Shown here one piece after another: positions 2,659 through 31,735 of a stretch of 64,000 bases of DNA; within the stretch, counting starts at the first letter, position 1; each line of letters begins with the position of its first letter. Origin of the DNA: Mahella sp. (lineage in GTDB: Bacteria; Bacillota; Clostridia; Mahellales; Mahellaceae); assembly GCF_020054945.1 (NCBI RefSeq), contig NZ_JAIHAU010000004.1:8903-72902 (forward strand), given 5' to 3'. Made by a program: the position numbers and the translations under genes. Below the pieces are notes generated by a model. The model did no database searches. It had not been told where the DNA came from and was given only the letters and a program-made list of their open reading frames with translations.

Positions 2659-2922
2659 TTATAAAATATTTTCTTGACCGCCTTTTTCGACACCCATTAT
2701 CTCCCTACTCGAGTATTTAGTGGAACGAAATGTATAAAAGATAACCGAATCTTCATCTTTGTTTATGATTTTGCCCAATTCATATTTCAGCTTTTTATAA
2801 CCAGCTTCTGTAAGCTCGCCCTCCAAAACTGAATTTTGCACCCAGTAAAGGTATCTTCGACACAACTTCAGTACCTTTGCCACACGGCTTTGGTTTACAT
2901 CGTAGACCAATATCACAAACAT
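2659..2922 (-). CDS. cas2: CRISPR-associated endoribonuclease Cas2
   Basis: MFVILVYDV...VQNSVLEGEL, 87 aa, follows cas1. Confidence 0.96.
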   Translation of the reverse strand: MFVILVYDVNQSRVAKVLKLCRRYLYWVQNSVLEGELTEAGYKKLKYELGKIINKDEDSVIFYTFRSTKYSSREIMGVEKGGQENIL

Positions 2923-2925
2923 AAT

Positions 2926-3921
2926 TCACCAACGCGATACAAACGGGCTATATTCTTTCTCACCCACAAAATGTTTTTCTAATTTATATAATTCCATGCG
3001 TATAATGCTTCTGTAGGATACCTGCCGATGTAAATCCCTGTGATTTATAGTAGTGGCAAAGCGTTTATCCAGTTCGGTTACAAAAGCCTTCTGAGCCTTT
3101 TCCTTCAATATAATGCCATCGGCATAAGATTGAAAATCATTGGCCGCAATCATATTCTTGCCAAGTAATGTAAATATAGTTCTATCCACCAATATGGGCT
3201 TGAAAATTTCCGCCACATCGAGATTTAATGTAAAACGCCGAAAGTTTGTGGTGTGCAAATAACCTATCCTGGGATCCAGATGGGTTTTATATATTTCGCT
3301 CAGTACCAGCGTATATATAATAGAATTACCAAAACTTATGAGCGTATTTATTCTATTCTGAGGCGGCCTGCGGGTACGCTGTTCGAAAGTAAATGCCGGC
3401 TTATCAATTATAGTATCAAAGCCTTTATAATATTGATCCCGTATATTGCCCTCTATAGCCATCAATTCTTCTACACCAGTACATTCATATGTGGTAGCAT
3501 AGAGTTTATCTATTTCATCCGATATCGCCTGCAGAGAATCTTTACCTCTATTTATATAATATTTCAGAACATGCTGTATATTTTCAGCGGCGCCCTGCAC
3601 AAAATGCCTGGCCAGGCATAGCCTTTTATCGGCATCCATATAATACTCGGCCTGTTTTAAGATCATATACCCCGAATTCAGGTGTTCTCTTGGATAAAAG
3701 CTGCCGGCGTAATATCCATAGTGGTTAAAGAAATGCAAAAGTACCTCTTTTTGCGATAAGAATTCGATAAAGCGTTTATTGAAATTCACCTCTCCAAATA
3801 TCATTATCTCGCTTATATCTTCGATGGGTATATACTTTGAACCGGTTTCTGATTTGAAATAAACGGTGTTGTCTTTGCGCTCAAATTCGCCACTTGAAAA
3901 GATATAAAATGACTTTTTCAC
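2926..3921 (-). CDS. cas1: Cas1 integrase, type I-B
   Basis: FYPRE, IEG, RRPPQNRINTLISFGN, GYLH, DVAEIFKP; likely GTG start at 3921. Confidence 0.96.
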   Translation of the reverse strand: MKKSFYIFSSGEFERKDNTVYFKSETGSKYIPIEDISEIMIFGEVNFNKRFIEFLSQKEVLLHFFNHYGYYAGSFYPREHLNSGYMILKQAEYYMDADKRLCLARHFVQGAAENIQHVLKYYINRGKDSLQAISDEIDKLYATTYECTGVEELMAIEGNIRDQYYKGFDTIIDKPAFTFEQRTRRPPQNRINTLISFGNSIIYTLVLSEIYKTHLDPRIGYLHTTNFRRFTLNLDVAEIFKPILVDRTIFTLLGKNMIAANDFQSYADGIILKEKAQKAFVTELDKRFATTINHRDLHRQVSYRSIIRMELYKLEKHFVGEKEYSPFVSRW

Positions 3922-3935
3922 ACTATCCACTCTCC

Positions 3936-4436
3936 TTATGCCCAGCACATTTCAGCATATGCGCAGTTAGTACACCAATGAATTCTAGCCGGTTGCGGCG
4001 GCAATTCAGCGCCAACAATATCGGCTATTGCCACACACGCCCTATCCAACTCGGCCTGCGCTTCCTGGTCCAGGTGTACATCTATGATTTTCTTTTCCTC
4101 AGGAAACATCAATTGGCCTTCTGCTTTGATGCCAAGTTTCGATAATTCTGATAAGTAAAATAAAAGCTGCATTCTGGCGCTTTGGAGATATTTTGAACTT
4201 TTCTTCACCTCCCCTATCACAAGTCCGCCATCATCTTTCTTCAAAAGGTCTATCTTTATATTACCCACCGCTATTTCTTTTTTATCGCGTTCATAGCTGT
4301 GTTCATGCAAAAAGCGGCCCCACTCTATATTCTCATCGTGTTCATCAGGCGTAAGGTGCCGCGCCATAAGCCACGTTTCTCTAGGACATATGTAATAATA
4401 CCATATTAATGTACCGTTTATTTTAACGTCTTCCAT
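3936..4436 (-). CDS. cas4: Cas4 RecB-like nuclease
   Basis: YYYICPR, KIDL, EVKKS, QLLFYL and C-terminal CxxCAYxxxC. Confidence 0.95.
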   Translation of the reverse strand: MEDVKINGTLIWYYYICPRETWLMARHLTPDEHDENIEWGRFLHEHSYERDKKEIAVGNIKIDLLKKDDGGLVIGEVKKSSKYLQSARMQLLFYLSELSKLGIKAEGQLMFPEEKKIIDVHLDQEAQAELDRACVAIADIVGAELPPQPARIHWCTNCAYAEMCWA

Positions 4437-4458
4437 ATGCAGCCATCTCCTTATTAAT

Positions 4459-4488
4459 GCTTGAATTCCTCATAGGTAAGCTAAAAAC
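4459..4488 (-). repeat. Degenerate terminal CRISPR repeat of array A
   Basis: GCTTGAATTCCTCATAGGTAAGCTAAAAAC (+ strand), 3 mismatches to the 30-nt array A consensus. Confidence 0.92.
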
Positions 4489-4771
4489 TATTTACTATTT
4501 CATCAAGATACCACCACCAATTAGACTTAGGCTTATCCTTTTGTTTTGCTTCCAAAAAACCTTTCAAAGCCTTATAAAACAGTGGGGCCCTTTCAATAAG
4601 AATTTTATCAAGCTTTTCAATTTCCTCTTTTTCCGCTTCATTGAAGCTGTTAATATGTTCTTGGATAATATCTCTGCATTCTAACTCATATATATGTTCA
4701 AATGGGCTAAGATCCCATTCGCCATTGACAAAAGCATCATAGCCTTTAATTAAACGTTTATTGTCCATCAA
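4481..4771 (-). CDS. Hypothetical protein (95-96 aa) embedded in the CRISPR array; resembles phage toxin-immunity-type small proteins
   Basis: AAGGAG RBS then TTG/ATG; acidic helical protein with SPFE and PxSxWWWYLD motifs; stop TAG lies inside the degenerate repeat. Confidence 0.7.
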   Translation of the reverse strand: MMDNKRLIKGYDAFVNGEWDLSPFEHIYELECRDIIQEHINSFNEAEKEEIEKLDKILIERAPLFYKALKGFLEAKQKDKPKSNWWWYLDEIVNSF

Positions 4772-4888
4772 CTCTCAACTCCTTTACAGTGCTCAAAAGT
4801 TGCATACCGTTTTTCTTTATATATTCTTCATAACTTATTCTATCAAATTTAAATGCCATATCGATAACCTTATTCTGCCCAATTTTTG

Positions 4889-7800
4889 GTTTCAATTCCT
4901 CATAGGTAGGCTAAAAACGCGGCACAGGCATTTGTATCTCAATATTGTTGAGAAGTTTCAATTCCTCATAGGTAGGCTAAAAACTATTTTCCTCCTGTTG
5001 GAGCGTCCGAACTTCTTTGCGTTTCAATTCCTCATAGGTAGGCTAAAAACGGATATCCTGCCATACGTTATCACTTATTTGAGACAGTTTCAATTCCTCA
5101 TAGGTAGGCTAAAAACGCGAAAGCGTCTTGTGCCATCCGCACGTTTCCATCGTTTCAATTCCTCATAGGTAGGCTAAAAACAGTAACGGGTACCTCGACT
5201 ACTGCGACCGCAAATATGTTTCAATTCTAGCGGGCGAGCGTTTCAATTCCTCATAGGTAGGCTAAAAACCATTGACCTGCTTGCTGAGCTCGTCAATCCT
5301 GCCCTCGTTTCAATTCCTCATAGGTAGGCTAAAAACGATACTTAAAGAGAGCCTATATATTGCCTCTTTAGGTGTTTCAATTCCTCATAGGTAGGCTAAA
5401 AACGCGCTGCGTATGTTTTACCGCTCCCGGTCTGCCCTAGTTTCAATTCCTCATAGGTAGGCTAAAAACCCGACAACTATAATCTGATCACATTTAATGT
5501 TGCCGGGTTTCAATTCCTCATAGGTAGGCTAAAAACCAAAGCAGGAAGAGTTAAAGCAACAAACAATTGAGGGGTTTCAATTCCTCATAGGTAGGCTAAA
5601 AACTCAGCAGGAATAAGAGGCATAGTAGGATCCTTTATACGTTTCAATTCCTCATAGGTAGGCTAAAAACGCACAAGAAATAACGATGTTGCCATCAGCT
5701 GCGCGCGTTTCAATTCCTCATAGGTAGGCTAAAAACTTAACTTGGGATGGAGCTAATTTGTGGGTAGCTGGGAAGTTTCAATTCCTCATAGGTAGGCTAA
5801 AAACGGACGGGGACTTTGTGGCAGAAGCCATCGAGGTGAGAGTTTCAATTCCTCATAGGTAGGCTAAAAACGTAATTTATAGGCCGGAGGGCGCAGAGTT
5901 GGCAGACTGTTTCAATTCCTCATAGGTAGGCTAAAAACCCAGCACTAGTAAGAAAAAGTATACCATCCTCAAGGTTTCAATTCCTCATAGGTAGGCTAAA
6001 AACCAAGTTCGACCAGCAGTCACGGAAAAACCATTGTCAGTTTCAATTCCTCATAGGTAGGCTAAAAACAGAGGAAATGAGATGGGCGAAAGCCCATCCT
6101 CATCCCTGTTTCAATTCCTCATAGGTAGGCTAAAAACTTGATTTGGTACTTTGAAAAATCTTTACGGAGTGTTAGTTTCAATTCCTCATAGGTAGGCTAA
6201 AAACTGCGTTGGATTTATCCCCTTCCGGCTTTTCTTTTGGGGGTTTCAATTCCTCATAGGTAGGCTAAAAACTGCAGCCGGAAGAATATACACCGGACGC
6301 AATCCGCAAGTTTCAATTCCTCATAGGTAGGCTAAAAACCAGTGGCGTCGCTAAGACAACCACTTCAGATGCGCCGTTTCAATTCCTCATAGGTAGGCTA
6401 AAAACGCGGTGGCGGCCACGGGATTGCTGTTAACATTTTTGGTTTCAATTCCTCATAGGTAGGCTAAAAACTGGTTGGGCTACCTTGGGCAATAGCGCTT
6501 GTCCATAGTTTCAATTCCTCATAGGTAGGCTAAAAACTTCTTCGTTTACCAGTCCGTCGTTGTGCTCGACGAGAGTTTCAATTCCTCATAGGTAGGCTAA
6601 AAACAATAACAGAAAACGATAGACAACCTTCTTTCACCCGGTTTCAATTCCTCATAGGTAGGCTAAAAACACTCATATGTGCGATATACGGCGCAAATAC
6701 ATCGGGGGTTTCAATTCCTCATAGGTAGGCTAAAAACCTATGCTCCCATTCATCGCGCGGGAACCATTCGCCCGTTTCAATTCCTCATAGGTAGGCTAAA
6801 AACATCGCGGCGTGGTGGTTGCCCACCCTGGGGAACGACGTTTCAATTCCTCATAGGTAGGCTAAAAACTTTCATATACTCAGGCGCAAGCTTTTCCTCT
6901 TGCTATGTTTCAATTCCTCATAGGTAGGCTAAAAACATGTCAACACTTTTTTAAAAAAATTTTTTCATAGCAAGTTTCAATTCCTCATAGGTAGGCTAAA
7001 AACCAGCCCTGCTGGGGAGGCGTTATATCCCCAGCCCAGTTTCAATTCCTCATAGGTAGGCTAAAAACCCGAATTGGGCGGAGCGCTGGAAGAATTGCGG
7101 CACAGGTTTCAATTCCTCATAGGTAGGCTAAAAACGAGATGCGCCAATAGTTGAACAGTATAAAAAAGAGAAGTTTCAATTCCTCATAGGTAGGCTAAAA
7201 ACTCCAGCAGCATATATGGACACATATTTTCCTCATCCCAGTTTCAATTCCTCATAGGTAGGCTAAAAACGTCATAGGTAGGCTAAAAACGTGCCTCGGC
7301 TGGAGCACAACCGTCACACAGTCGAATAGTTTCAATTCCTCATAGGTAGGCTAAAAACGAAGTTACTATTCCTGATGAGTTGGTGCCTGAGGTTGCGTTT
7401 CAATTCCTCATAGGTAGGCTAAAAACCAACAATACGGTTGCGGCATGGCGATTTTGTGTTTTTGGTTTCAATTCCTCATAGGTAGGCTAAAAACGAAGGA
7501 CGTTGTCACTGTCCTCACCGTCCAGCCAAGAAGTTTCAATTCCTCATAGGTAGGCTAAAAACACGCTGCGCAGGATAGTGGCGTGCCAAGAGTATTTTGT
7601 TTCAATTCCTCATAGGTAGGCTAAAAACGAGAAAATCGCTGATACATTAGCGCATGTTATATCGTTTCAATTCCTCATAGGTAGGCTAAAAACTCCAGCA
7701 GCATATATGGACACATATTTTCCTCATCCCAGTTTCAATTCCTCATAGGTAGGCTAAAAACGCTCATAGGTAGGCTAAAAACTATTAACGGCGTCGCGTT

Positions 7801-9854
7801 GCCATACGTGACGGAATATGTTTCAATTCCTCATAGGTAGGCTAAAAACTTTTTGACGGGGCTTTGGAACGGCATCGTGACCGTTGGTTTCAATTCCTCA
7901 TAGGTAGGCTAAAAACGTAACGACAAACATTTTAGAACAAGTTGAAGAACGTTAGTTTCAATTCCTCATAGGTAGGCTAAAAACACATGCATCAACATTA
8001 AGACACTCGTATATCAAAAGTTTCAATTCCTCATAGGTAGGCTAAAAACCAGAATATGAGCGAAGGGAGGAGGCCAAGAATGACGAGTTTCAATTCCTCA
8101 TAGGTAGGCTAAAAACCATATGGGTTGAAGTATTCTTTTAATGTTTCGGTATGTTTCAATTCCTCATAGGTAGGCTAAAAACATATTCGCCGCGGCTTTT
8201 CCCATTTTAGCGGCTCCTGGTTTCAATTCCTCATAGGTAGGCTAAAAACTTAGGCACAACCGATACAACCCTGTACACAGTACCAGGTTTCAATTCCTCA
8301 TAGGTAGGCTAAAAACGGGGAGGTTATCCACTGCGTTCGGTGTTTCTTCTCCGCGTTTCAATTCCTCATAGGTAGGCTAAAAACGCTGGAGCATATAGGA
8401 TTATGGGGCACAGAACCAACGTGTTTCAATTCCTCATAGGTAGGCTAAAAACCTACCGGCTTTCTTCAGCTTGGCTCACGGTTATCCTAGTTTCAATTCC
8501 TCATAGGTAGGCTAAAAACCTCTGGAACTTCGACAGTCTCGCCTCTCTTTATCAGAGTTTCAATTCCTCATAGGTAGGCTAAAAACTATCCTCCGTAGCG
8601 GAAAAAAGCAGCTCTTCTACATGTTTCAATTCCTCATAGGTAGGCTAAAAACACAATAAACAATATTACTGACGCGCCGGCATATGAGAGTTTCAATTCC
8701 TCATAGGTAGGCTAAAAACTGTTGCTTTTTCTCAACCGACATATTTAATACCCCCAGTTTCAATTCCTCATAGGTAGGCTAAAAACAAGATGACAGATGC
8801 AGAATTGGCAGTGCTTAAAGAGGTTTCAATTCCTCATAGGTAGGCTAAAAACGCCCATCTGCTTGCGTTAGGTCGTTCATAATACGCTCGTTTCAATTCC
8901 TCATAGGTAGGCTAAAAACCTGAGCAACAAGAAAAATTGGAGAAATTATGTGATGGGTTTCAATTCCTCATAGGTAGGCTAAAAACGCTAAACCATATCG
9001 AGTAATCACGGCCGGAGGTGACGTTTCAATTCCTCATAGGTAGGCTAAAAACTGCGAGCGGCTTCAGAAGCACAATGAGCTTGGAGCTAGTTTCAATTCC
9101 TCATAGGTAGGCTAAAAACTGGAATAGCATAAAAGAGATTATTTTTAGCCGTCTAAGTTTCAATTCCTCATAGGTAGGCTAAAAACCGTCAACCAAAGCG
9201 CGTTTTTTGGCCATTTTAAGAAGTTTCAATTCCTCATAGGTAGGCTAAAAACGAGGTCAACGGTAAATCATATATAGCCATTGACCCGGTTTCAATTCCT
9301 CATAGGTAGGCTAAAAACCGCAGCGGATAAACGATAAGCAGAGAACGATACAGAGTTTCAATTCCTCATAGGTAGGCTAAAAACTTTTTTGGCAGCTATA
9401 TACTGCCTCAACGCCTCGGCGAGTTTCAATTCCTCATAGGTAGGCTAAAAACGGTTCATCCGACTAGTTTTAGAAGATGGCCGCGTTATGGTTTCAATTC
9501 CTCATAGGTAGGCTAAAAACAGTAATCGTACAATGCATCAATTGCATCTTTTTTTGGTTTCAATTCCTCATAGGTAGGCTAAAAACCTTCATGATTATAT
9601 TATAGCCATGCTATGGCCATAGTGGTTTCAATTCCTCATAGGTAGGCTAAAAACTCGTTCAACTCGATATATTCATCAGTACTACGGGTGTTTCAATTCC
9701 TCATAGGTAGGCTAAAAACTTTTATCATTCAAAATTCCCCCCTATGCTCGATATAGGTTTCAATTCCTCATAGGTAGGCTAAAAACAAAGTCGATCAGTC
9801 CGCTGAACACCTGAGTTAATGAGTGTTTCAATTCCTCATAGGTAGGCTAAAAAC
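4889..9854 (-). CRISPR. CRISPR array A: 74 full 30-nt repeats GTTTTTAGCCTACCTATGAGGAATTGAAAC (transcribed sense), spacers about 35-38 nt, plus 3 partial repeats; extends to 4459 if the 400-bp insert is counted
   Basis: Repeats read directly; orientation from the ATTGAAAC 3' end, the leader on the high-coordinate side and the degenerate repeat on the low side. Confidence 0.99.
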
Positions 9855-10398: not shown

Positions 10399-12363
10399 TT
10401 ATATATCATTCCCGCGGTTCCTTTTGCGCTCCTGATTTGATGCGTTCACGCGATTTCCCTTTTTATTGGAATTCATATCATGCTTTTCTATGTCAAAGGG
10501 GCCTGGCAAAACCTTTCTGTCCTTAAACTTATCTATGCTCATATATGACGTTTTGTCTTTATCAGGTCCATGCCATTCCAATATTTTTAAAAGCATTTTT
10601 ATGCGCTCCAATTGCTCGAAATCACGGGCTTTATTGGCGTCTTCAGCGCTTATATTATCCATGATATATTTCTTAAAAGCTTCTATATACTTTTTAGGTT
10701 CGTCTTTGCATATCGGTTGCAGCCATGTATCGCCATCGAAAAGCCCTTCATATCTCTTTTTTATATCTTGTATATAAAGCGTCGGCTCAAGCTTAACTGC
10801 TCCCATGCCATATGGTTTACCCATGCCTATTTCATGCCTATAGCTATCCGGCAGCATAAGCACCCATAAGAGACCGCCAATTTCCTCTTCTCTGAGATTT
10901 TCAAAGTATATGCGCGAGCGAAATTTTACACCGCTTCTTACGGGTTTTATACGCGTATACTGCGTCTTTTTATCTTTTACATCATTATCGTCTGCTTTTA
11001 TATAGGTTAAATCGACATTGCCTTTATGCCAGTAGAGTTTATGTCCGCGTATAGCAGCGGCAATCTCGTTACCATCTTTGCTATCATAATGATTCAATAT
11101 TTTCCTATTGGTCTTTTTATCGTTCGGTTTGTCTTGTATCAAATAATGCTGAAAGGCTGATGGTTTAGGGGATGCCAATATATGAGGTGAAAAAATACCA
11201 TTCAGCCATATATCACCCTGCCCCGGCAGCAACACGCCATCGGTGAAAGATACACGCCCCGCATATCCCTTTTCGTCTTTTCCTAAAGCATAGCCGAATA
11301 TCGCATCGGCCAAATCTATGACATCGTTATCCTTTACTTCTGGCGGTATATGATCGAAAGGTGTACTCTCATATACCAATCTAAACATCAGAGTATGCCC
11401 AAACATAACGACATCACCATTACCATCCTGTATATAGAATACAGGATAACCGTCTACCAATACCCCATCCCTGCCAATATAATCTTTTTGCCAATCAGTC
11501 ATCTGAGCTTTATAGGCATCTATCACGCTATCCTGTATTTTTATTGGCTCGGCTTCTTTATCTGGTAAACCTATAACACAATGGTTCTTTTTACCGTTAA
11601 TATAACCGGTAACAATCAGCATCGCTTGTCTATATCCTTTTTCTTTTATTGCTGACATTTCTGTAATTCTATTATTCCCCTCAGCGGCAACATTACCAAC
11701 ATATATATAGCAAACCCCACAAAATTTCTTTTTCCCATCACTGGTCGTATATTCCTTTTTGCCCCCAAACTTCCAATTCAATTTGCTTACAATATTATTT
11801 ATATCCTTTGCCCTAACTGTACAAAAATCACGATTCGCAAGCTTTTGAGCCGGTCTTATATACCAGCCGTCGGCTTTCTTCTCCATATAGCCGGCTTTTT
11901 GGTTTTTTACCTTTTCCATATAATAGGACCCGATACTGCTTTTATCTACCACAGCTCTATAAGCAATTTTATCGTTTGTAACCCAGCTAACCTTACCATA
12001 TGATGCTATCTCCAGCAAAGTCCTTGTCATGCCCCTTATGCTGCTTGCCGGTATGACCGGACTATTTTCATCCTTAGTAAAGAAAAAACTGGCCATTTGC
12101 TTTTGCTGATCTTCGCTAAGTTCGTCAAACGATTTATAACCATTCTCTCTATAAAACTCGGGTGTCATACCGCACCTTATGTAAGTGGGCGATTCTGTGG
12201 TTATAATACAATCTATGTAGCCTGTGCAAAGTTTATCGTCATATTTATCGTGTCCCGGCAAACACTGTCTCGCTTTGACAATTTTATGAGGAAGTTGTAC
12301 GAAATTATAAGGGGCTTCAGCCCTAGGCTCTTCTTCTGTAAGGCTTCTATGTTCTATCTTCAT
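10399..12363 (-). CDS. Type III-D Cas7 with large insertion (TIGR03986-like RAMP)
   Basis: APYNFV N-terminus, IPASSIRGM, GRVSF, RGHKLYWH, IGMGKPYGMG G-rich loop; follows csx19; start set at MKIEH (12363). Confidence 0.88.
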   Translation of the reverse strand: MKIEHRSLTEEEPRAEAPYNFVQLPHKIVKARQCLPGHDKYDDKLCTGYIDCIITTESPTYIRCGMTPEFYRENGYKSFDELSEDQQKQMASFFFTKDENSPVIPASSIRGMTRTLLEIASYGKVSWVTNDKIAYRAVVDKSSIGSYYMEKVKNQKAGYMEKKADGWYIRPAQKLANRDFCTVRAKDINNIVSKLNWKFGGKKEYTTSDGKKKFCGVCYIYVGNVAAEGNNRITEMSAIKEKGYRQAMLIVTGYINGKKNHCVIGLPDKEAEPIKIQDSVIDAYKAQMTDWQKDYIGRDGVLVDGYPVFYIQDGNGDVVMFGHTLMFRLVYESTPFDHIPPEVKDNDVIDLADAIFGYALGKDEKGYAGRVSFTDGVLLPGQGDIWLNGIFSPHILASPKPSAFQHYLIQDKPNDKKTNRKILNHYDSKDGNEIAAAIRGHKLYWHKGNVDLTYIKADDNDVKDKKTQYTRIKPVRSGVKFRSRIYFENLREEEIGGLLWVLMLPDSYRHEIGMGKPYGMGAVKLEPTLYIQDIKKRYEGLFDGDTWLQPICKDEPKKYIEAFKKYIMDNISAEDANKARDFEQLERIKMLLKILEWHGPDKDKTSYMSIDKFKDRKVLPGPFDIEKHDMNSNKKGNRVNASNQERKRNRGNDI

Positions 12364-12935
12364 GGTTGTACCTCGTTTCCATTCAATTTTATACCGCACA
12401 TCCTGCTCGCACTAATATATGCCTGTCCATATTCGTCATAATCTATATAATGTTTCACGGTTAACGTGCATAGAAATCTATTAGGTTTTTCACCGTTCAT
12501 ATTATCGGAGATACTAAAAGGGAGAGCATGCCTCAAACCCTGTTCGCCAACTGCCAGCAGCGTAAAACCTTCTTTAACGTCTTCAATTTTATTACCGAGC
12601 AAGATATAATCCTCGATAAGCTCATTCTCTTCGTTTCCGTCCTCTAAAAGGCAACCCTTAAAAGACAAAGCATCGCGCCAAACATGTATCTCCATATCCC
12701 TATTGAAGATCCTAACTTGTTGCAACGTGCAAAGCCTAAACTGTGGCGAAATATTCGGGAATATGCTGCTGGATAATTTAAAACAGCCATCTTTCACGAC
12801 ACCCCAAATAACCCCATCGTCAGCATATGCCAATATCCAACCGACATCTACACCACATCCGGCCAGCCATGTATTGATATTATTTTCAAATCCGCTCATG
12901 TCAATGCTCTTGATTAGATAAGTTTTATTGTCCAT
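12360..12935 (-). CDS. csx19: Csx19 (TIGR03984-like)
   Basis: LAYADDGVIWG, LQQVRIF..E.HVW, C-terminal YIDYDE.GQAY...SR; position in a III-D operon. Confidence 0.85.
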   Translation of the reverse strand: MDNKTYLIKSIDMSGFENNINTWLAGCGVDVGWILAYADDGVIWGVVKDGCFKLSSSIFPNISPQFRLCTLQQVRIFNRDMEIHVWRDALSFKGCLLEDGNEENELIEDYILLGNKIEDVKEGFTLLAVGEQGLRHALPFSISDNMNGEKPNRFLCTLTVKHYIDYDEYGQAYISASRMCGIKLNGNEVQP

Positions 12936-14286
12936 TATTCTCTCTCCTCCATAAAGCCTGTACAAACGATTCCAGTCGCTTCACACTACCTCGCACATTA
13001 ATTTTCTCCCCTCTCTGTTCGATCCGCCAGTAATCCCCATTATAATCCAGTTCTGCTTTTAAGCCCTTAAATCTGCCGCGTCCTATAGCTGTTCCTCTTC
13101 CTATAGGTAAATTCGATGTCCATAAATCCTTAAGCAGCAAAAGCAGCAATCCAATCTCTCTTTCTTGTGCTCCATCTAACGCTAATTTCACTTCAACTTT
13201 TCCAGCAAATATCGGTTGCTCATTGAAGAGCGCTCCCGAATATGCTCCTCCCGTAAATCTGTCAATTTTTATACGGTTTTGGACGAGTTGTTTTGAATCA
13301 TCTATAGTAGTTTCATAAACCCACAGCCTACTAGCCCTACGATCCTTTTTCTCCTCACGAGGCGTACCGAATATTTCGTTCACTATAGCCACATCAGCAC
13401 CTATAGTATTGATTATTTTGTATGCCCTTGATCTAAGGCTACCAGCTAAACTCGTACCGCTCAAAATAGGAGTATTACTCCCATCCCTAAATGAGTGAAT
13501 ATGCACGATATCCGGATCATTGCCGTTAACAGCCTGACTTCCTATTAGGATTGAACCATCAATTTCAAAGGAGGCTTTCATTACAAACTTATCTTTATCC
13601 CCGCCAATATTTTTAATAGGTAGGTCGTCTATGCCTTTAACATTATGTTCATTTTTATCTTTTTCCAGCCAACCTATAAGACCTTCGGGCTTACTCATGT
13701 TGTAACGGTATACCTTAAAATTCTTCGCATGGCATCGGCCCAGGCCTCTTCTTTTTCTCCTGCCAATCGGTATTTCGCCCTCCTCCAAAGCCTTAAGCGT
13801 CGATACAAAATAGCCAAGCGTATCAGCATAACAGTCATTTTCCAGAACCATAAACTCAAATGAAAGGGGAAATACTGTGCCCTCCGGCAAAAGCTCCATA
13901 TCAAACTTCGCTGTATCAATTGCCGTACCGGTATTCAAAGATATTGCCACGCCATCGCGCACCTCAACTTGGACACCATCGGGCAGTCTTCCAAAGCTAT
14001 CTTCAACAAAAACAATGCTCGGACAACTTTTGCTCTTATCCATGTTTCCAAATATTTTAGAAGCCTCTTCCTTGAAGCCCGCGCGTTCCAGATATGCTCT
14101 CAATGCTCCTGCAATCGAACTTCCCATCAACAAAGGCAGATTATCTATCTCATACAGTAACAATTGCATATCAGCCAGATCTTTCCCTTCGCTACATCCT
14201 ATATGAGTCGGCGTATCAAGTACTAAATCTGCATTTATTAGTATCCTTTCTTTAACGCCGTGACCGTTCTCCCATTGTGGTCTCAT
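12925..14286 (-). CDS. Tandem Cas7-Cas7 (Csm3-group) RAMP fusion
   Basis: Two RAMP units: GSSIAGALR...IGRRKRRGLG and SGTSLAGSLR...IGRGTAIGRG. Confidence 0.88.
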   Translation of the reverse strand: MRPQWENGHGVKERILINADLVLDTPTHIGCSEGKDLADMQLLLYEIDNLPLLMGSSIAGALRAYLERAGFKEEASKIFGNMDKSKSCPSIVFVEDSFGRLPDGVQVEVRDGVAISLNTGTAIDTAKFDMELLPEGTVFPLSFEFMVLENDCYADTLGYFVSTLKALEEGEIPIGRRKRRGLGRCHAKNFKVYRYNMSKPEGLIGWLEKDKNEHNVKGIDDLPIKNIGGDKDKFVMKASFEIDGSILIGSQAVNGNDPDIVHIHSFRDGSNTPILSGTSLAGSLRSRAYKIINTIGADVAIVNEIFGTPREEKKDRRASRLWVYETTIDDSKQLVQNRIKIDRFTGGAYSGALFNEQPIFAGKVEVKLALDGAQEREIGLLLLLLKDLWTSNLPIGRGTAIGRGRFKGLKAELDYNGDYWRIEQRGEKINVRGSVKRLESFVQALWRRENNGQ

Positions 14287-15803
14287 TTATTCTCACCAGC
14301 TTTCAAGGCTTTTTTCAATAATCCGTCAAGCAATCGAGCGCTATATTCTATCTTTAATCCTTGGACAACTTGTTCAGGCAATTTTATGTCCCCAAGTTTC
14401 GGCTCCGGCTCCGGCCTAAGCCATGCATTCCATACTTTATCGCAAAAATCTTCTCTTATCCAATCATATAAGGATGTGGAATCTAATTTGACTTTTTCCA
14501 ATTGTGATTTAGCAGTATTTTTTAATCCATCGGCATATCTCAAAAGCATATCTTTATCGCCGCTAAAGCACATTCCATGCGCAACATTCCGCAAGCGCGC
14601 CATTTGTGTTCTAGTAGCATCAGTACCTTTTATCTGAAGTTTTTGTAGCGTATCTGCTAATTTATCATCCAACATATCTCTCCATAATCTTTCGATCAAT
14701 CTCTTGGCCATTGAAATGCTGCGTTCGCTCAACTCTGTTTTCTTAACATTCTGTTTTTGTTCGTCCAATCTCATTCCTTTTATAGATGCTCGTCCATGCC
14801 AATTCACGGCTATTCGGCCAAAACCTTCGGCACGGCGTTGGCCAATGCCAAACATGCATGCCTGTTTTAATACGGCCTTATCAATATTTGACTCACTATA
14901 TACGAACACACTGCCAGCTCTAAATCCGTACATTTGCGGTAGCGGCAATCCCCATTTTCTATTAAATCCAGATATAACCTTTGGCTCATAATAAGCACAT
15001 TCAGGTTCCACATCAAATAAATCGCGAGCATTCACCGTATTCTGACCATACTTGTTAAAAATTATTGTATCGCTCAAAAGTGTAATAATTATTTTATTGC
15101 CACGTGCAAAATACTCGCCTGGCTCATATTCTTTCCAGTCTTCCTCAACATGCGTTTCTATATACACTAAACCGTATCCTGCAGTGCGCGACGCACCCAT
15201 TTTAAAATATTTTTTGTTCAGCAAATCGTTTATAATTTCTAAATCCGTTTCGCCCTTGCATACAACGGCACCTGAAAATACCTGATCGGCAGCAAGCGAT
15301 TCATATCTATATACGGTACTTTTACCCTCGCTTTTCTCTCTGCGATCCCAGCTGCTATTGTGAACTGCCATATCATACTGAGGCGACGCCATATAAACGC
15401 CATCTTCTTCATCAGCGCAATAAGCCAAGTTTGGATGACTAGCACTCTCAAGTTCTTCACTTTTTTCAACGGCAAAATCATATATTTTAGTTTTATTTTT
15501 ATCCATAGCTACATCGTCTTTAGACGTAAACCACGACAACGGCTTCGGTAAGAAGCGCATGTTGTTCGCTTTGATATAGGCATTCAAAAAACATGTGCTG
15601 CCTTCAAAAAATAACCTTCTACACACAGCATCTTCGCTTGCATCCTCGATATTATTGTCTTTTATATAAGCGTTCGCCGCAATGCCCAGTATAGTACTGC
15701 CCGGTATGTAGTCCTGACTTATGGCGCTATTCTCCTCACCTGCTCCAGGTGTAGACAATATTAAAGGCTCCAATAAATGTATATCAACCTTCAAAGCTTT
15801 CAT
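14283..15803 (-). CDS. csx10: Csx10-like Cas5-group RAMP with helical C-terminal extension (putative Cas11 fusion)
   Basis: YIPGSTILG, MGASRTAGYG, GFNRKWGLP, GIGQRRAEGFG; about 130-aa helical tail with 'TRTQMARLR'. Confidence 0.8.
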   Translation of the reverse strand: MKALKVDIHLLEPLILSTPGAGEENSAISQDYIPGSTILGIAANAYIKDNNIEDASEDAVCRRLFFEGSTCFLNAYIKANNMRFLPKPLSWFTSKDDVAMDKNKTKIYDFAVEKSEELESASHPNLAYCADEEDGVYMASPQYDMAVHNSSWDRREKSEGKSTVYRYESLAADQVFSGAVVCKGETDLEIINDLLNKKYFKMGASRTAGYGLVYIETHVEEDWKEYEPGEYFARGNKIIITLLSDTIIFNKYGQNTVNARDLFDVEPECAYYEPKVISGFNRKWGLPLPQMYGFRAGSVFVYSESNIDKAVLKQACMFGIGQRRAEGFGRIAVNWHGRASIKGMRLDEQKQNVKKTELSERSISMAKRLIERLWRDMLDDKLADTLQKLQIKGTDATRTQMARLRNVAHGMCFSGDKDMLLRYADGLKNTAKSQLEKVKLDSTSLYDWIREDFCDKVWNAWLRPEPEPKLGDIKLPEQVVQGLKIEYSARLLDGLLKKALKAGENK

Positions 15804-16483
15804 GCCAGTATCGCCTCCTTAAAAAGGTTAAAATGATCATTTAATATTGATTTTTGGTCATCATCTAGCAAATCAGCCTTTACCCTCCCTCTTCCTCTGC
15901 TCACACCACTCCCAGCTCTGTAAAATGCTTTTATACACGCCGATAAAAGCTGTAAATCTTCGCTTAGGGGTTTTTCAGAAAATGCTAGTAACGCCTCAAA
16001 GTATATACCTTTTAATATAATTCTTTCAGATCTGAGAGTATTAGCTTCTGCCACCTGCTTAACATCGTCTACGGCAGTTTGATATCGTACCGATGTCATC
16101 GTGTTTAATATCTTTGACGGTGAATTTCCATCAGCTGTTACCCACTCACGTATTATTGCCCGTCTCAAATCGTCAGGAAGTTTAGCATGACCTATATGCA
16201 AAATAGACTCTTCAGAGGCAGTACTCCCCGCCTTACCAAACAACCTTGCAGCAGACTTCTGCCATGGTACTTCTTTCCCCATCATCTTTAGCGATTCCAT
16301 AATATCGGCACAAGCTTCCACAAGTAGACCTTTTAGAGTTCTCCCCGATATATATGGAAATCCGTAGTTATCATGCTGTACCTCCTGATTCAGTATGCTA
16401 GCCACCCCATCGCCCCTACTAAATGTCGCATCGGTCTCCAATTCGATTGCTAAATAATACCTATTCACATTATCCCTCCTCAT
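15800..16483 (-). CDS. Cas7/Csm3-group RAMP
   Basis: GFPYISGRTLKGLL, LFG, QTAVD, GSGVSRGRG. Confidence 0.88.
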   Translation of the reverse strand: MRRDNVNRYYLAIELETDATFSRGDGVASILNQEVQHDNYGFPYISGRTLKGLLVEACADIMESLKMMGKEVPWQKSAARLFGKAGSTASEESILHIGHAKLPDDLRRAIIREWVTADGNSPSKILNTMTSVRYQTAVDDVKQVAEANTLRSERIILKGIYFEALLAFSEKPLSEDLQLLSACIKAFYRAGSGVSRGRGRVKADLLDDDQKSILNDHFNLFKEAILA

Positions 16484-18039
16484 TATAGATCAATCAGAAA
16501 ATCCATGGCCTCTATGGCATCGAAATAGCCGCAACGCCCGCCTTGCCAGCCGTTCTTACTCATCGTATTGTAATTTTCTATCATCGGTAGCTCCTTTATA
16601 CCATTTAAAGCCATAAAATTGGCCACGCTATTTTCTCCCTTTCTAAGTGCCCTTTGCAAAGCAATAATCTTGCTTCTTTTATCCCGCCATTCATCGCTTT
16701 TAAATTCATCAACGATATTTTTGAAGACATTCCAAGTTCGCCAGTCGTCATCGTCCATTACTGAAATAGGCCTCATATATAACTTTTTATTCCCTTCTAT
16801 ACTATATTCTTTTTCCCTTATAGCATTTATGCTATTATATACCGTACCATTTACAGCAAAATGCCAATCCATCGCGCTTATATCAGGACAATTAGCGCTT
16901 TTTTTGTCTAATATGAATTGCTTGGCAGAAGCGCATAACCCTTCGGCCAGATCATATGCCCTTGCAAATGGATAATGGGATTTTACAATAGCTATACCAG
17001 CTCTACCGTAGAAAGGCTTTCCATCGCTCAAAGTTTGGTTTTGTAAGCTAAAAAGATAATTATGGGCTAGCGACAACGCTATGCTACCATGGCATACAAA
17101 GGTAACATCGTCACCGTTAAAGACTATCGGCCTGAAAGGAAGCATATTTCCAGTAATCTTAATCTCGCCTTTTATAAGATTATCGTTTATAGCTGCTACC
17201 AGTTTGTCGACGGTACTTTGCAACGATTTTTTTACGGCATGCTGTATGCTGCTAGAAAATTCCCTCATGTCTTTTATGAAGTTTCTATTCCCGGAAGGAT
17301 CTGTATGACGTTGCCGTATCGCATCTATACGCTTTGACATCCCATTGCCATCCGTATGTACTATGCCTATGTAACTTGAACCTTCTATGCCAGACGCTAT
17401 ATCATTAAACTCACGCGCAAAAGTATATCCTTTAGTTTCGAAAGCTCCCTTCAAGCTTTCCCATGCTTCATCTTTTTCAATACAATATTTCGAATGCGCT
17501 TGCGATGACAAAAAGCAACCATCGGATTCGTCAAAGTGAGTAGCGGGCAAACCGGAAAATATACACTCTGCGGTAACGCCGGCTCCTAACATCGGCGTTG
17601 AGAAATTCCTATTCAGTTTTTTGGCAGCACCTTCCTTTTGAAGAAATGTTAACATATCGGAAAGAGAATCATTACACCAGTCAAACTCTTTATACACCAC
17701 AGTCACATCAAGCCCCGGCGCTTTTTGGATAATGTAACTTGTATATTTTCGAGTAAATGAATTAGCAATACTTTTATTTTTAAATATAATTACAGCATTG
17801 CCACCGCCACAGTATATGACTTCGGCATCAATATCCCCATCTTCTATTTTTTCATTATTGTAGCTACCCTCTGTTATATCTATAACATTATTAGGTTTTG
17901 GCAGCATATCAGCTACCCACTCTCTGGTCGTACACCCCACTAAATATGATGCTCCTGCATTCTGGCGCAGATTATTGGTCGCAAAGACATATTTCTGTAT
18001 ATTACGTGTATCTATAACCATCAATGCCAACTTATCCAA
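16483..18039 (-). CDS. cas10: Cas10 (type III-D, no HD domain, NGDD palm motif)
   Basis: IQKYVF..N.L..NAGAS start, YCGGGNA, HTDGNGM, RPIVFNGDDVTFVC, AGIAIVKSHYPFARAY.LAE.LC.SAK. Confidence 0.93.
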   Translation of the reverse strand: MDKLALMVIDTRNIQKYVFATNNLRQNAGASYLVGCTTREWVADMLPKPNNVIDITEGSYNNEKIEDGDIDAEVIYCGGGNAVIIFKNKSIANSFTRKYTSYIIQKAPGLDVTVVYKEFDWCNDSLSDMLTFLQKEGAAKKLNRNFSTPMLGAGVTAECIFSGLPATHFDESDGCFLSSQAHSKYCIEKDEAWESLKGAFETKGYTFAREFNDIASGIEGSSYIGIVHTDGNGMSKRIDAIRQRHTDPSGNRNFIKDMREFSSSIQHAVKKSLQSTVDKLVAAINDNLIKGEIKITGNMLPFRPIVFNGDDVTFVCHGSIALSLAHNYLFSLQNQTLSDGKPFYGRAGIAIVKSHYPFARAYDLAEGLCASAKQFILDKKSANCPDISAMDWHFAVNGTVYNSINAIREKEYSIEGNKKLYMRPISVMDDDDWRTWNVFKNIVDEFKSDEWRDKRSKIIALQRALRKGENSVANFMALNGIKELPMIENYNTMSKNGWQGGRCGYFDAIEAMDFLIDL

Positions 18040-18040
18040 T

Positions 18041-19252
18041 TCATTTCCCTCCCACTGTCGATATCCATTCTTTAAGTTCCTCTTCTAGCTCGGGCACGTC
18101 GTCTTTACCAAAAACTTCGATTCTACCCTTCTCAAATATTTCATTTTCAATTTCTTTTTTAAGATCGTCGGGGTTATTATAATAACAGACACAGGCAATA
18201 CGCGCTTCATCACCACCCATTTGTTGGGCGCGTATATATGCTTCAAAAATCTTTTTTTTACACATTTCTTCTCTGCGCGACGTAGTGCATGAAATGCCGA
18301 ATAACTGATATCCCATCATGAAAGCAACATCAAATTCAAAATCTCGTGGGTTCTTAACATCAATATTCATACCATAATCCGTAATATTATATTCTTTTGC
18401 TATGGAAATAACACAGCCTAATGTATAGTCTTCTAACCAGCCACCGCTTAACCATTTTGCTAAATTGGCAATTTCCTCGCCGGATAGCAATGTGTTAACA
18501 TCCTCCAACGTTTTTATATCATCTCTATTTGTCAAATAAATGAAAGGATTTTTGAGGCTGTATTCGGGTATCAAGACATCTTTTAGCTGATCTTCTTCCT
18601 TACCTTCGTCCCCATTTTTTAGGTTCTTTCTACACCATTCACTCCATTTGTTCAAGTGATTAACACTTTTCATGAATTCCATCATTTTCTTAGAAGCCTC
18701 AAAATATTTTGGCTTTGATTTCATATGTTTCTCAACCTTTTCCGGGTCGAAGCCATGTAACGCCAAAAGCTCTGGAATTTTTATCTTTACCAATTCCAAT
18801 ACCTTTTGTGATTTTAATGAATCATTATTTTTATGCATAAGCATATTAAATTTTCTGGAATCGAGATAAGAAAAAACAGCATATGGTATGTTGCCCTTCA
18901 CCCAATCATATGTATGCACAGCCATCGTTTTCGTTCCGCCTGTATAATTTAAACCTATCAATTTGTTGTTAGTTCTTCCTATTTGGGGTAGCAGCCCACT
19001 ATTCAACGAATTGTATATTTTATCTTTATCAGACGGATCAACCTCTATGTAGTTAAATGTTAACCCTTGCTTATGATCTTTTAATACATTTTTGATATTT
19101 TCAGCATAATCAAATGTCTTTGATGTATGTACCAAATCAACAGTTCCCCCATCCCTGACCAAAAGAAATGCCGCTACATAATTTGGCAAAGGGTTGCTAC
19201 CTACTAGGACGATAAGCTCGTCCACTGCTTCATAGCCACAAATTAAACTCAT
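18041..19252 (-). CDS. can2: CARF-nuclease ancillary effector of the Can2/Card1 (DUF1887) family
   Basis: LVGSNPLPNY and NYTGGTK.M CARF motifs, YLDS, GGWLE, EFDV...SCTTS nuclease motif, MGGDEAR. Confidence 0.85.
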   Translation of the reverse strand: MSLICGYEAVDELIVLVGSNPLPNYVAAFLLVRDGGTVDLVHTSKTFDYAENIKNVLKDHKQGLTFNYIEVDPSDKDKIYNSLNSGLLPQIGRTNNKLIGLNYTGGTKTMAVHTYDWVKGNIPYAVFSYLDSRKFNMLMHKNNDSLKSQKVLELVKIKIPELLALHGFDPEKVEKHMKSKPKYFEASKKMMEFMKSVNHLNKWSEWCRKNLKNGDEGKEEDQLKDVLIPEYSLKNPFIYLTNRDDIKTLEDVNTLLSGEEIANLAKWLSGGWLEDYTLGCVISIAKEYNITDYGMNIDVKNPRDFEFDVAFMMGYQLFGISCTTSRREEMCKKKIFEAYIRAQQMGGDEARIACVCYYNNPDDLKKEIENEIFEKGRIEVFGKDDVPELEEELKEWISTVGGK

Positions 19253-19287
19253 AAAGTCCGCTCCTTCCTTTCATTTGCTATTTCCCA

Positions 19288-22200
19288 GTTTCAATCCCTC
19301 ATAGGTAGGCTAAAAACATGTTAGCTGGTACAGCTGGCGGCGCAAAAAGTGGGTGTTTCAATTCCTCATAGGTAGGCTAAAAACATAGGTCGTTTATAAA
19401 GTCTCGGGTGGATAATAGTGAGTTTCAATCCCTCATAGGTAGGCTAAAAACTAATAAGCTTGATACTGCCTTAGACATTTCAGATGGTTTCAATCCCTCA
19501 TAGGTAGGCTAAAAACAGCTGAAGGCGATCTTTGGGTAGACACGAGCATCAGCCGTTTCAATCCCTCATAGGTAGGCTAAAAACGGCCAATCATACATAA
19601 GCCCATTTGTTTCCGCTGTGGTTTCAATCCCTCATAGGTAGGCTAAAAACCCACTAGGAGACAAGTGGCCATTGCACAGATGATGCAGGTTTCAATCCCT
19701 CATAGGTAGGCTAAAAACAATAGTGCGGCCAAACGAGGAGGTATATCATGAATAGTTTCAATCCCTCATAGGTAGGCTAAAAACTTGAAAGCCCTTATCC
19801 TCCTACGATTGCCGATATTCGGTTTCAATCCCTCATAGGTAGGCTAAAAACTCGTCCTCAGAAACTTTTACATATTGCTTAGCAATATGGTTTCAATCCC
19901 TCATAGGTAGGCTAAAAACAAACATAGAAAATATCTGGATACCTGAACAGGCGGCGTTTCAATCCCTCATAGGTAGGCTAAAAACGGGTTGATGATAGCC
20001 GGTACTGGTGGGCTGCATAGCTCTGTTTCAATCCCTCATAGGTAGGCTAAAAACGTTTATCTATATGAATGCCGCGCAGATTCGCCTTGCAGTTTCAATC
20101 CCTCATAGGTAGGCTAAAAACCTATTTAGAGATAGGCAAGCAGCATCTTGGAGATTTGTTTCAATCCCTCATAGGTAGGCTAAAAACTGATGTGCCGGAC
20201 GAATTTATATATCGTGTGTTTAGTTTCAATCCCTCATAGGTAGGCTAAAAACGCTGCTCATGCTATAACTGCTGATGAATTGTCGGTATGTTTCAATCCC
20301 TCATAGGTAGGCTAAAAACAATATTCCAAGGGCTATTTCAAGGCATTGCTGGATGGTTTCAATCCCTCATAGGTAGGCTAAAAACTGGGGTTCAGCTTCG
20401 AAGAAAGCGCCGCTCTCATGGGGTTTCAATCCCTCATAGGTAGGCTAAAAACCGTCAAGCCGGCTAAAAAGGCAAGCAAGCCAAAAAAGTTTCAATCCCT
20501 CATAGGTAGGCTAAAAACTGGGTGGCAAGCATGAAAGAAATATTAATGGTTTTTGGTTTCAATCCCTCATAGGTAGGCTAAAAACCGAAAGCGCAGCAGA
20601 AATAATTCAAGATTTTTATATAGAAGTTTCAATCCCTCATAGGTAGGCTAAAAACAATATCGCTCGCGCTTGCCATTGAACTGGTCGACCAGGGTTTCAA
20701 TCCCTCATAGGTAGGCTAAAAACATTTATGCTGGTAATTATATCGTTAAATTTGGTTTCTTGTTTCAATCCCTCATAGGTAGGCTAAAAACTGTCTGAAG
20801 AGACTGGGTTTCAATCCCTCATAGGTAGGCTAAAAACCATGGGGCTTTGAGGAAGTCTTCAGGGAAGTTCGCATGTTTCAATCCCTCATAGGTAGGCTAA
20901 AAACAAGCAATTTTATCAAGCACAATGCTGTACATATGCGGTTTCAATCCCTCATAGGTAGGCTAAAAACGTCTGGAATTAACGAAGGGTATATGTTTGT
21001 GGCCGGTTTCAATCCCTCATAGGTAGGCTAAAAACGTATTCACGGATTACGATATTATAACAATATTTTGGTTTCAATCCCTCATAGGTAGGCTAAAAAC
21101 AAAAGCGCCAGCCGTGCTTGTGGAAGTTGCCTTTCATGAGTTTCAATCCCTCATAGGTAGGCTAAAAACAAAGCGGCGACATAGAAGCCGCAGCCGACAA
21201 AGTAAGTTTCAATCCCTCATAGGTAGGCTAAAAACTTTTGCCCTTGGAGTACGACACCTATTGCCAGTATAGTTTCAATCCCTCATAGGTAGGCTAAAAA
21301 CATTTATGCTGGTAATTATATCGTTAAATTTGGTTTCTTGTTTCAATCCCTCATAGGTAGGCTAAAAACTTGAAGCTTTAGGGGATAACAAACGTTTCAA
21401 TCCCTCATAGGTAGGCTAAAAACTATAACGGCAAATGGCTTTTTGGATGTCGATAACATGGTTTCAATCCCTCATAGGTAGGCTAAAAACATGATATTGA
21501 AATAGTGAAGATATATCCTGATGAGGCGTTTCAATCCCTCATAGGTAGGCTAAAAACCGTAGCATAAAGCTACCGCATGGCACAATCCGGCTGCGGTTTC
21601 AATCCCTCATAGGTAGGCTAAAAACCCATAACAACAGGCAGCAAATACAAACTAAATTCAGGGTTTCAATCCCTCATAGGTAGGCTAAAAACGAAGCAGG
21701 ATAGCGTTCGTGTACCTGTGCTGGGGTGTTTCAATCCCTCATAGGTAGGCTAAAAACGATGGATGCAAGTAAATTATTCGAGAGGTATTTAGCGTTTCAA
21801 TCCCTCATAGGTAGGCTAAAAACTCATCTAAATAACTTTCCAATTTGGCAGTAACGCTTGAGTTTCAATCCCTCATAGGTAGGCTAAAAACGTATCTCTG
21901 CTGCGGTAAATGCCGTATACCAATAAGGTTTCAATCCCTCATAGGTAGGCTAAAAACTAGGTTCTATATTGTGGGGGAAGGAGGAGAAAAATGAGTTTCA
22001 ATCCCTCATAGGTAGGCTAAAAACTGTGCACGGGAAAAATGCTTATAAACAGCGGTATATGTTTCAATCCCTCATAGGTAGGCTAAAAACACAAATAGGA
22101 ATCACGATGGATTTATATTCGCATGTGCGTTTCAATCCCTCATAGGTAGGCTAAAAACATGGAAGATGTGGAGATATACGTGAAGCATATCGCTGGTTTC

Positions 22201-22627
22201 AATCCCTCATAGGTAGGCTAAAAACCGTAACCGTATATGAAGACAAGATCGACATGGATATTTGTTTCAATCCCTCATAGGTAGGCTAAAAACATAGGTG
22301 TGATGACCATGCCCACGACCCCGCGCAGGGTTTCAATCCCTCATAGGTAGGCTAAAAACTCATAACAAATCGAGGAAAATAATATGGGAGAAACTTGGTT
22401 TCAATCCCTCATAGGTAGGCTAAAAACCAGATGCTTCCCCGCGTGGTCTTGCGTGGGACGGTAGTTTCAATCCCTCATAGGTAGGCTAAAAACCTTGGAG
22501 TCGCTTACGCCTACGGCCGATAGGGATATGTTTCAATCCCTCATAGGTAGGCTAAAAACATACGAGTGCTGGTATCTGTCTTTGGCTCTTTGAATATGTT
22601 TCAATCCCTCATAGGTAGGCTAAAAAC
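19288..22627 (-). CRISPR. CRISPR array B: 51 repeats GTTTTTAGCCTACCTATGAGGGATTGAAAC, 50 spacers (mostly 35-40 nt)
   Basis: Repeats read directly; one nucleotide differs from array A; leader at 22628+. Confidence 0.99.
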
Positions 22628-22853
22628 AAATTTGAGCAGCTATAAATGGGCATTTACATATTATTTACATTGTTTGTTTTAACTAATCATAAGTAGGGTA
22701 AAAATCATAGCAAACAGCGATATTAAGCCCCTATATAGCATAACAGTAATGTCGTCGATCTCCAGGCTTTTATGCACTATTACCGGTCGACGACATTATT
22801 ATATCATAATCTGCTCTGTGTTGTACAATTATTTTTGGCATAAATTTATGCCA
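22628..22853 (-). promoter_or_regulatory. CRISPR leader B
   Basis: Paralogue of leader A; inverted repeat 22747-22758 / 22787-22798; TGATATAAT extended -10; palindrome 22836-22853. Confidence 0.88.
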
Positions 22854-25293: not shown

Positions 25294-25313
25294 TGCCTCT
25301 CATACCTTTCTTC

Positions 25314-26081: not shown

Positions 26082-26125
26082 TGCGGCACCGCCTCCTTTC
26101 TAACATATTACATGCAGGCATAGTG

Positions 26126-29033: not shown

Positions 29034-29038
29034 CCCTT

Positions 29039-31723: not shown

Positions 31724-31735
31724 AAAAGCCTCACC

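Follow-up and report, generated by a model that had tools for sequence, protein, structure and literature searches.

We analysed a 64,000-nucleotide stretch of a Mahella sp. genome (contig NZ_JAIHAU010000004.1; hereafter the window), in which a CRISPR array ends, on the side of the adaptation genes, in a unit of exactly 400 bp. This unit is real, it is derived from a phage, and comparable units recur in other genomes. It lies exactly between two repeats, in the sense orientation of the array, and retains a ribosome-binding site and an open reading frame (ORF) with a predicted function in immunity against a phage-borne toxin. The explanation that we favour, by a modest degree, is that the 400 bp are a slice of the MuF toxin locus of a temperate phage, taken up as an oversized capture by Cas1-Cas2-Cas4 and kept for the predicted immunity gene.

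The giant spacer (4489-4888, minus strand) is placed between the last perfect repeat of array 1 (4889-4918, minus strand) and a trailer repeat with three mismatches (4459-4488, minus strand; 27 of 30 positions match). These borders agree to the base with those of the first-pass annotation, made from the letters alone. Array 1 contains 74 perfect repeats (4889-9854, minus strand), and because its leader lies beyond 9854, the 400-bp unit is the trailer-most one and fills the oldest position in the array. Its GC content is 32.5%, against 44.1% genome-wide. Nearly all spacers in the two arrays of the window are 35-40 bp long, and the 400-bp unit is the only one above 58 bp; it falls outside the spacer length range and is foreign DNA bounded exactly by two repeats. 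The unit was found unchanged, with 0 differences, in unitigs from four of four sequencing runs covering 4200-4911/4917, all four runs being from one study and one of them possibly the source of the assembly. The trailer junction is fully bridged by these unitigs, and the other junction is covered 23-29 nt into the perfect repeat. In run X6, from another study, the cas4 leader and the trailer repeat are followed by different DNA (two contigs, depth 2), and the insert therefore occupies a variable spacer slot. Two loose-end sequences from run X6 match no spacer of the window.

The nearest DNA found for the unit is in genome G420 (locus L020), with 86.5% identity over all 400 nt and no gap, followed by G892 (85%), provirus L018 (74%) and L015 (72.5%). 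Provirus L018 has the order portal, MuF2 with a C-terminal extension, homologue of the small ORF, scaffold and capsid; its portal gene (PF05133) is followed by a gene matching PF06152 (E 3.5e-36, residues 6-290 of 477), and the homologue overlaps the end of this 477-residue Phage_min_cap2 (MuF2) gene. Comparison with L018 shows that a headless frame of 42 codons plus stop in the unit (4758-4888, minus strand) is the 3′ end of the C-terminal extension of a MuF2 gene, corresponding to residues 325-366 of protein P0016. L015 has the order end of the extension, homologue and scaffold, and L028 has a MuF-type head gene followed by a distant homologue. The toxin-gene end and the small ORF overlap by 11 nt in the window, L018, L026 and L015 alike, and P0087 is a MuF protein fused to a domain of the immunity family. 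The source thus has the layout of MuF toxin modules, with MuF behind the portal, a C-terminal extension, and a small ORF directly downstream. Jamet et al. (PMC5576092) report a small ORF, regarded as the immunity gene, behind 89.4% of MuF toxin genes and propose that the toxins enter with phage DNA. A phage derivation is nearly certain and an immunity function of the ORF's gene family very probable. The first-pass guess of a MuF toxin followed by its immunity gene is supported. The same module was also seen as remnants outside arrays, namely beside a tRNA-Arg gene (L016:7999-8192), as a 5′-clipped MuF gene (L026:8390-9791), and as a damaged toxin end accompanied by an intact immunity gene (L041:6504-7053). 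Weak or spurious matches in L001, L017, L046 and L047 were dropped.

The phage context is hard to reconcile with the idea that the ORF is an ordinary chromosomal gene next to cas4, a CreTA-like module with a chance repeat, or an assembly artefact. The position between array and cas4 and the degenerate repeat would fit such readings. Against them, close homologues were seen next to cas4 only where they form part of an array, the DNA at this site is different in the sister genome G040, the trailer still matches at 27 of 30 positions, and the unit is identical in the unitigs of all four runs. CreTA/CreR modules have a short guide matching a promoter in the locus and a repressed toxin; the insert matches nothing else in the genome, and a search of this genome (86% complete) turned up no whole toxin gene. 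We consider this group of readings largely refuted and very improbable.

The small ORF (4481-4768, minus strand) starts with ATG at 4768 behind the ribosome-binding site AAGGAG (4779-4784, minus strand), which is inherited from the phage gene pair and has the same spacing in homologues. Its final codons read AAT A|GT TTT TAG, so that 93 phage codons are followed by S, F and a stop from the trailer repeat. The headless frame, the AAGGAG motif and the repeat-supplied stop are as the first-pass annotation described them; its 96-residue length is corrected to 95, the start at 4768 being the one that matches all homologues. The repeat carries a stop in two of its three frames, so taking the stop from it is not remarkable in itself. 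The usual length of close homologues is 99-101 residues, and in the window ORF the conserved G-x-L tail is replaced by the repeat-encoded S-F. A natural end at 93 residues was rejected, as it is found only in P0005 and the L016 remnant; the end of P0008 is doubtful because its cluster mate P0118 has 99 residues. In a large protein set the ORF has 14 matches, the full-length ones being 63-85% identical; some are named from Carboxydocella, Carboxydothermus and Thermoanaerobacterium. A recorded 53-residue partial protein, on a contig of 10,195 nt, shows the same S-F end. Distant relatives comprise 101 representatives and include no named family; Pfam, PHROGs, PADLOC and the ESM Atlas gave no name for the ORF or for 28 of the 29 distant relatives scanned. 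The helical model of the ORF has no distinctive fold match (best Z 5.8).

To characterize the presumed partner, we modelled the C-terminal extension of MuF2, for which Pfam has no match. A single-sequence model (predicted local distance difference test score, pLDDT, 66) has as top structural matches CdiA, colicin D and other RNase toxins of the BECR type, with low Z scores of 5.2-3.5, and the ESM Atlas gives Colicin_D as a lead at 0.84. The extension is tentatively predicted to be a BECR-type RNase toxin. Structure prediction of residues 250-366 of P0016 together with the window ORF gave a score of 0.72, whereas the highest of three controls was 0.02. Complex runs agree in at least 93% of contacts with a partner pLDDT of at least 85; of solved complexes, 51 of 78 attain the mark used, as do 2 of 108 pairs that are mismatched. 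The predicted interface involves ORF residues 1-34, 70 and 74, away from the clipped tail, and its core, L20-E24, is invariant in nine of nine homologues checked. Thus, the window ORF product is predicted to bind the toxin domain of the MuF extension.

Units of this kind are not confined to the window. A phylum-wide search led to genome G949, after which 18 regions before cas4 were retrieved in the order of G949; nine have an array of this repeat family before cas4 and nine do not. In G949, the array between cas3 and cas4 has 61 repeats, and its last units measure 232 bp and 1005 bp (L042:5252-6518). The 1005-bp unit carries the same gene family as the window ORF with a ribosome-binding site and with different junctions; a degenerate repeat inside it is marginal (5% of shuffles). 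The 232-bp unit holds a whole 56-residue membrane ORF; the homologue of this unit in G892 lies outside any array and is preceded by TTA. The stacked G949 units also hold a 53-residue ORF and a decayed small gene, and parts of them recur before cas4 in G679, G958, G490 and G850. In G989, a 228-bp unit (L059:5362-5589), with both flanking repeats split by insertion sequences (IS), aligns over 228 of 228 nt with two phages at 99.1% (L075) and 94.7% identity, and TTA directly precedes its start in both. It carries a ribosome-binding site and a 71-codon gene completed by F and a stop that the repeat supplies, in the frame that is also used in the window. The source order is portal, a 545-residue head-morphogenesis gene with a long C-terminal extension, and the 71-codon gene. 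In G040, of the same genus as the window (L013:2337-4692), the last repeat is followed at once by a MuF C-terminal fragment, then IS110, the downstream gene and cas4; amino acid identity is 57-62% for the fragment and 53% for the downstream gene, which belongs to the G989 family, and the junction is too diverged for a protospacer-adjacent motif (PAM) to be called. In G912 (L057), a phrog_3711 gene follows a degenerate repeat; this gene lies directly behind MuF and its extension in three of the four viral loci examined (six found), the fourth starting too near to tell. Altogether, a gene known from behind MuF is present in 5 of 12 arrays before cas4, or in 3 of 10 without the window and G949, both of which were found by query. 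Three of the five cases are bounded by repeats on both sides.

Other ORFs in the sense of the array lie at or between degenerate repeats in G991, G679 and the G850/G958/G490 group, and such repeats are absent from 200 shuffles of each of five segments. Sense ORFs of 92, 59 and 248 residues with a ribosome-binding site immediately follow the last repeat or a degenerate one ahead of cas4 (L048:14084-14432, L049:836-1015, L052:13546-14292, L053, L050); the 59-residue ORF of L049 has no phage match. L054 and L056 have no cassette ORF of note. The repeats of L051 are protein repeats and were rejected, as were long gaps in L056, L057 and L066, which are mostly IS insertions. IS insertion into arrays occurred repeatedly (L056, L057, L059, L066).

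We next consider how the unit entered the array. Homology to phage DNA begins directly behind the perfect repeat, at the very next base, and stops no more than 1 nt short of the trailer. In four of four homologous DNAs, the triplet ahead of the 5′ junction is TTG; TTN has a background of 7-9%. The PAM listed for exactly this repeat in the supplement of Vink (PMC8482600) is TTA; a related type I-B system accepts TTN (PMC6926293), and TTG is inactive in a system with another repeat (PMC12044746). An estimate from this genome's own spacers gave no credible protospacer in the genome, the compared loci or INPHARED phages. Capture into the array, as proposed in the first-pass annotation, is backed by the exact junctions, the PAM-like start and the independent cases in other genomes, and we consider Cas-mediated capture of the 400-bp unit probable. 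Capture would have begun at the PAM (TTG in the homologues, TTA as listed), the far end would have been left untrimmed rather than cut to 37 bp, and the clipped gene would have been closed by the TAG of the repeat.

Recombination between array and phage, by microhomology, by spacer-guided exchange or as a prophage remnant, could have produced the unit instead of the Cas1-Cas2 integrase. Over the 30 phage bases that precede the 5′ junction, agreement with the repeat in register amounts to 15, 13 and 12 positions, which rank in the top 0.4% (G420, 15/30), 2.7% and 7% of the local background, so recombination retains a place among the explanations. In addition, Jaubert et al. name spacer-guided exchange as an option for the SiL-E1 pseudo-spacer, the module survives as non-CRISPR remnants in G420, G892 and L016, and the degenerate trailer is unlike the product of a fresh duplication. 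However, the upstream repeat is free of mismatches through its final base, with homology from the next base on, and the 3′ junction has no repeat likeness (10/30; 23% of background). Exchange between two spacers was rejected, as the insert has no TTN in front of its final 33-41 nt. In two parallel units TTA stands immediately before the first base, and prophage integration into repeats proceeds through an attachment site rather than through the interior of a head gene (10.1101/2020.10.09.333658). We therefore regard recombination as rather improbable.

Whether the captured gene is of use to the cell is a separate question. If MuF proteins enter with the phage DNA, as has been proposed, a cell whose CRISPR system cuts up that DNA would lose the phage's own immunity gene with it and would be exposed to the toxin unless it has its own copy. 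Long captures would be occasional, and cells with toxin-immunity pieces would survive preferentially. To estimate what chance would deliver, random 400-nt sense windows were drawn from a 16-kb provirus piece and scored for a ribosome-binding site plus at least 92% of a gene. Any gene was contained in 686 of 15,883 windows (4.3%) and the immunity gene in 98 (0.6%), that is, in 14% of the gene-holding windows (98/686). A MuF-downstream gene was found in three of the six gene-bearing lineages not found by query (binomial p ~0.04 against 14%, a hand calculation with small n and non-independent relatives). On balance, selection seems to enrich captures for toxin-immunity genes, a claim that we make with some reserve.

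The main competing explanation is a neutral relic, in which an accidental oversized capture has persisted with an idle gene, the last unit being rarely deleted. It is favoured by the fact that only small genes fit into such captures and MuF-downstream genes are small, and by the decay of the parallel copies in G949 and G040. We note that these pseudogenes fit neutral decay or a one-time benefit alike. On the other hand, the immunity gene makes up only 14% of gene-holding windows, yet half of the six lineages have a MuF-downstream gene (the sources in the other three being unknown); all cassette ORFs noted run in the sense of the array; and the 99%-identical G989 unit lies at the trailer though it looks recent. 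We judge this explanation unlikely, if still to be taken seriously.

Several observations weigh against the favoured reading, in which the unit was captured by Cas proteins and kept for its gene. Spacer deletion is lowest at the last spacer, and more so beside a mutated repeat (PMC11472070, PMC8047081). The selection test is non-significant, with invariant columns broken in 3 of 23 for the toxin fragment and 2 of 48 for the ORF (Fisher p 0.32; p 0.2-0.3). All 31 columns invariant in nine homologues are kept in the window ORF, and its pairwise dN/dS against G420 is 0.17, a value that includes time spent in the phage. The product lacks the family's last 7-8 residues, including the G-x-L motif kept in distant relatives, and the gene is thus not fully intact, contrary to the first-pass description. 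The TTG before the 5′ junction differs from the listed TTA, and an exact 22-nt scan of viral contigs returned no source phage. The fold matches of the toxin are weak (Z 3.5-5.2, pLDDT 66 model). Among the parallel cases, the G949 immunity homologue carries a 1-nt frameshift and its 1005-bp unit starts with 27 unrelated bases, the G040 copy is decayed and split by IS110, which itself contains an internal stop, and the G040 and G912 cases are bounded by a repeat on one side only. As regards expression, part of the ribosome-binding site is paired in a stem of the predicted RNA fold, and the unit lies 4966 nt from the leader end, with seven terminator-like matches on the minus strand of the array.

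For expression itself, the layout of the locus is informative. Because cas4 starts 22 nt behind the trailer and needs an upstream transcript, the 400-bp region is probably transcribed. In the window, 22-36 nt separate the end of each array from the cas gene that follows (cas4, 4436-4459; the Card1-like gene, 19252-19288), and the two genes therefore seem dependent on array read-through or in-array promoters. A promoter scan found 6 sites against 12.9 in shuffles, so the match at 4864-4837 is no evidence for a promoter. A 155-nt piece from run X5 that ends 3 nt into the insert was set aside, its nature as RNA being only guessed. Cas6 cuts 8 nt before the repeat end. If it does so here, the perfect repeat at 4889-4918 would supply the 8-nt 5′ handle of a predicted processed RNA of 430 nt spanning 4896-4467, with the ribosome-binding site at 113 and the start codon at 129. 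The first 37 nt of this RNA could also guide Cascade to the toxin gene. That the window copy works today is conceivable, at somewhat less than even chances.

The other features of the window lie on the minus strand in the order cas6-cas8b-cas7-cas5-cas3, array 2, Card1-like gene, type III-D genes, array 1 and cas4-cas1-cas2. The adaptation module cas4, cas1 and cas2 (2659-4436; assigned by Pfam) is directly downstream of the trailer. Type III-D effector genes with the Card1-like CARF nuclease occupy 10399-19252, and array 2 (51 repeats) with the type I-B genes cas3, cas5, cas7, cas8b and cas6 occupies 19288-29803. The leader of array 1 resembles that of array 2, which contains a repeat-like sequence with seven mismatches (22676-22705). 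Genes for a HerA-like ATPase and a NurA nuclease adjoin cas6 upstream (29870-32734). The arrays also contain a 58-bp unit with a partial repeat end (5182-5239), truncated repeat duplications (7261-7290, 7753-7782), short spacers of 16 and 24 bp (20792-20807, 21370-21393) and two spacers present in duplicate. A two-repeat mini-array of the same repeat family lies far from cas genes (G000:C56:35613-35709).

Among known systems, the closest to the unit itself is SiL-E1, a pseudo-spacer in Sulfolobus islandicus LAL14/1 (PMC3718332) made of long, ORF-containing DNA from a mobile element; it is placed exactly between repeats, its homology reaches both borders, and faulty processing by Cas proteins was proposed for it. 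It differs in being ~2 kb from a conjugative plasmid, in one strain and mid-array, and the available text proposes no protective cargo; the cargo of window-type units is a predicted immunity gene that recurs across genera. In the literature searched, mostly outside subscription journals, SiL-E1 was the only giant or gene-bearing spacer found, and immunity genes captured in arrays were not found. MuF polymorphic toxins of Firmicutes prophages (PMC5576092) share MuF2 (PF06152) behind the portal, a C-terminal extension and a small overlapping ORF, whereas of such a module the window has just the final 42 codons of the toxin and the small ORF, inside an array. The rAID-1 clusters of Bacteroidales (10.1101/471110) are similar in having co-oriented, low-GC orphan immunity genes with repeated intergenic motifs, apparently added singly; the window has one such gene between motifs, and G949 has several stacked ORFs. 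In rAID-1, however, a XerD-like recombinase accompanies immunity genes against type VI secretion toxins and protection was shown experimentally, whereas the window has CRISPR repeats, a likely Cas1-Cas2 integrase, phage-borne toxins and a predicted immunity, and its neighbours are the array and cas4-cas1-cas2 in place of a XerD-like recombinase. Canonical type I-B acquisition by Cas4-Cas1-Cas2 likewise gives repeat-bounded DNA of foreign origin with a PAM-side start, the start of the unit being PAM-like; unlike a canonical spacer, the unit codes for protein and exceeds the normal length about elevenfold. In vitro, untrimmed substrates are integrated by a type II-A Cas1-Cas2 alone (10.1101/486738, PMC8034620), the length changes described being small and not of hundreds of bases, and the available text of PMC8860600 has nothing on long spacers.

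The usual view is that a CRISPR array stores nothing but short guides, and long units tend to be discarded by array finders and amplicon assays. Giant spacers are already in print with SiL-E1, and the new part is that the arrangement, with predicted immunity genes, recurs. We tentatively suggest that arrays of this type I-B repeat family may serve as a second, protein-level memory, in which Cas1-Cas2-Cas4 would capture entire immunity genes of phages as cassettes framed by repeats and gathered at the trailer next to cas4, expressed from the array transcript and protecting against toxins that are injected along with the phage DNA degraded by interference. Such cassettes could borrow repeat stop codons, and the whole might amount to an integron-like acquired-immunity system made from CRISPR parts, which is as tentative as the memory itself. 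The G989 unit and its 99% phage match form a clean test pair. Recurrent capture of toxin-immunity genes, if true, would open to testing the hypothesis that MuF toxins travel with the phage DNA and penalize cells that clear the phage (PMC5576092), and working defence genes would have a way in through the array.

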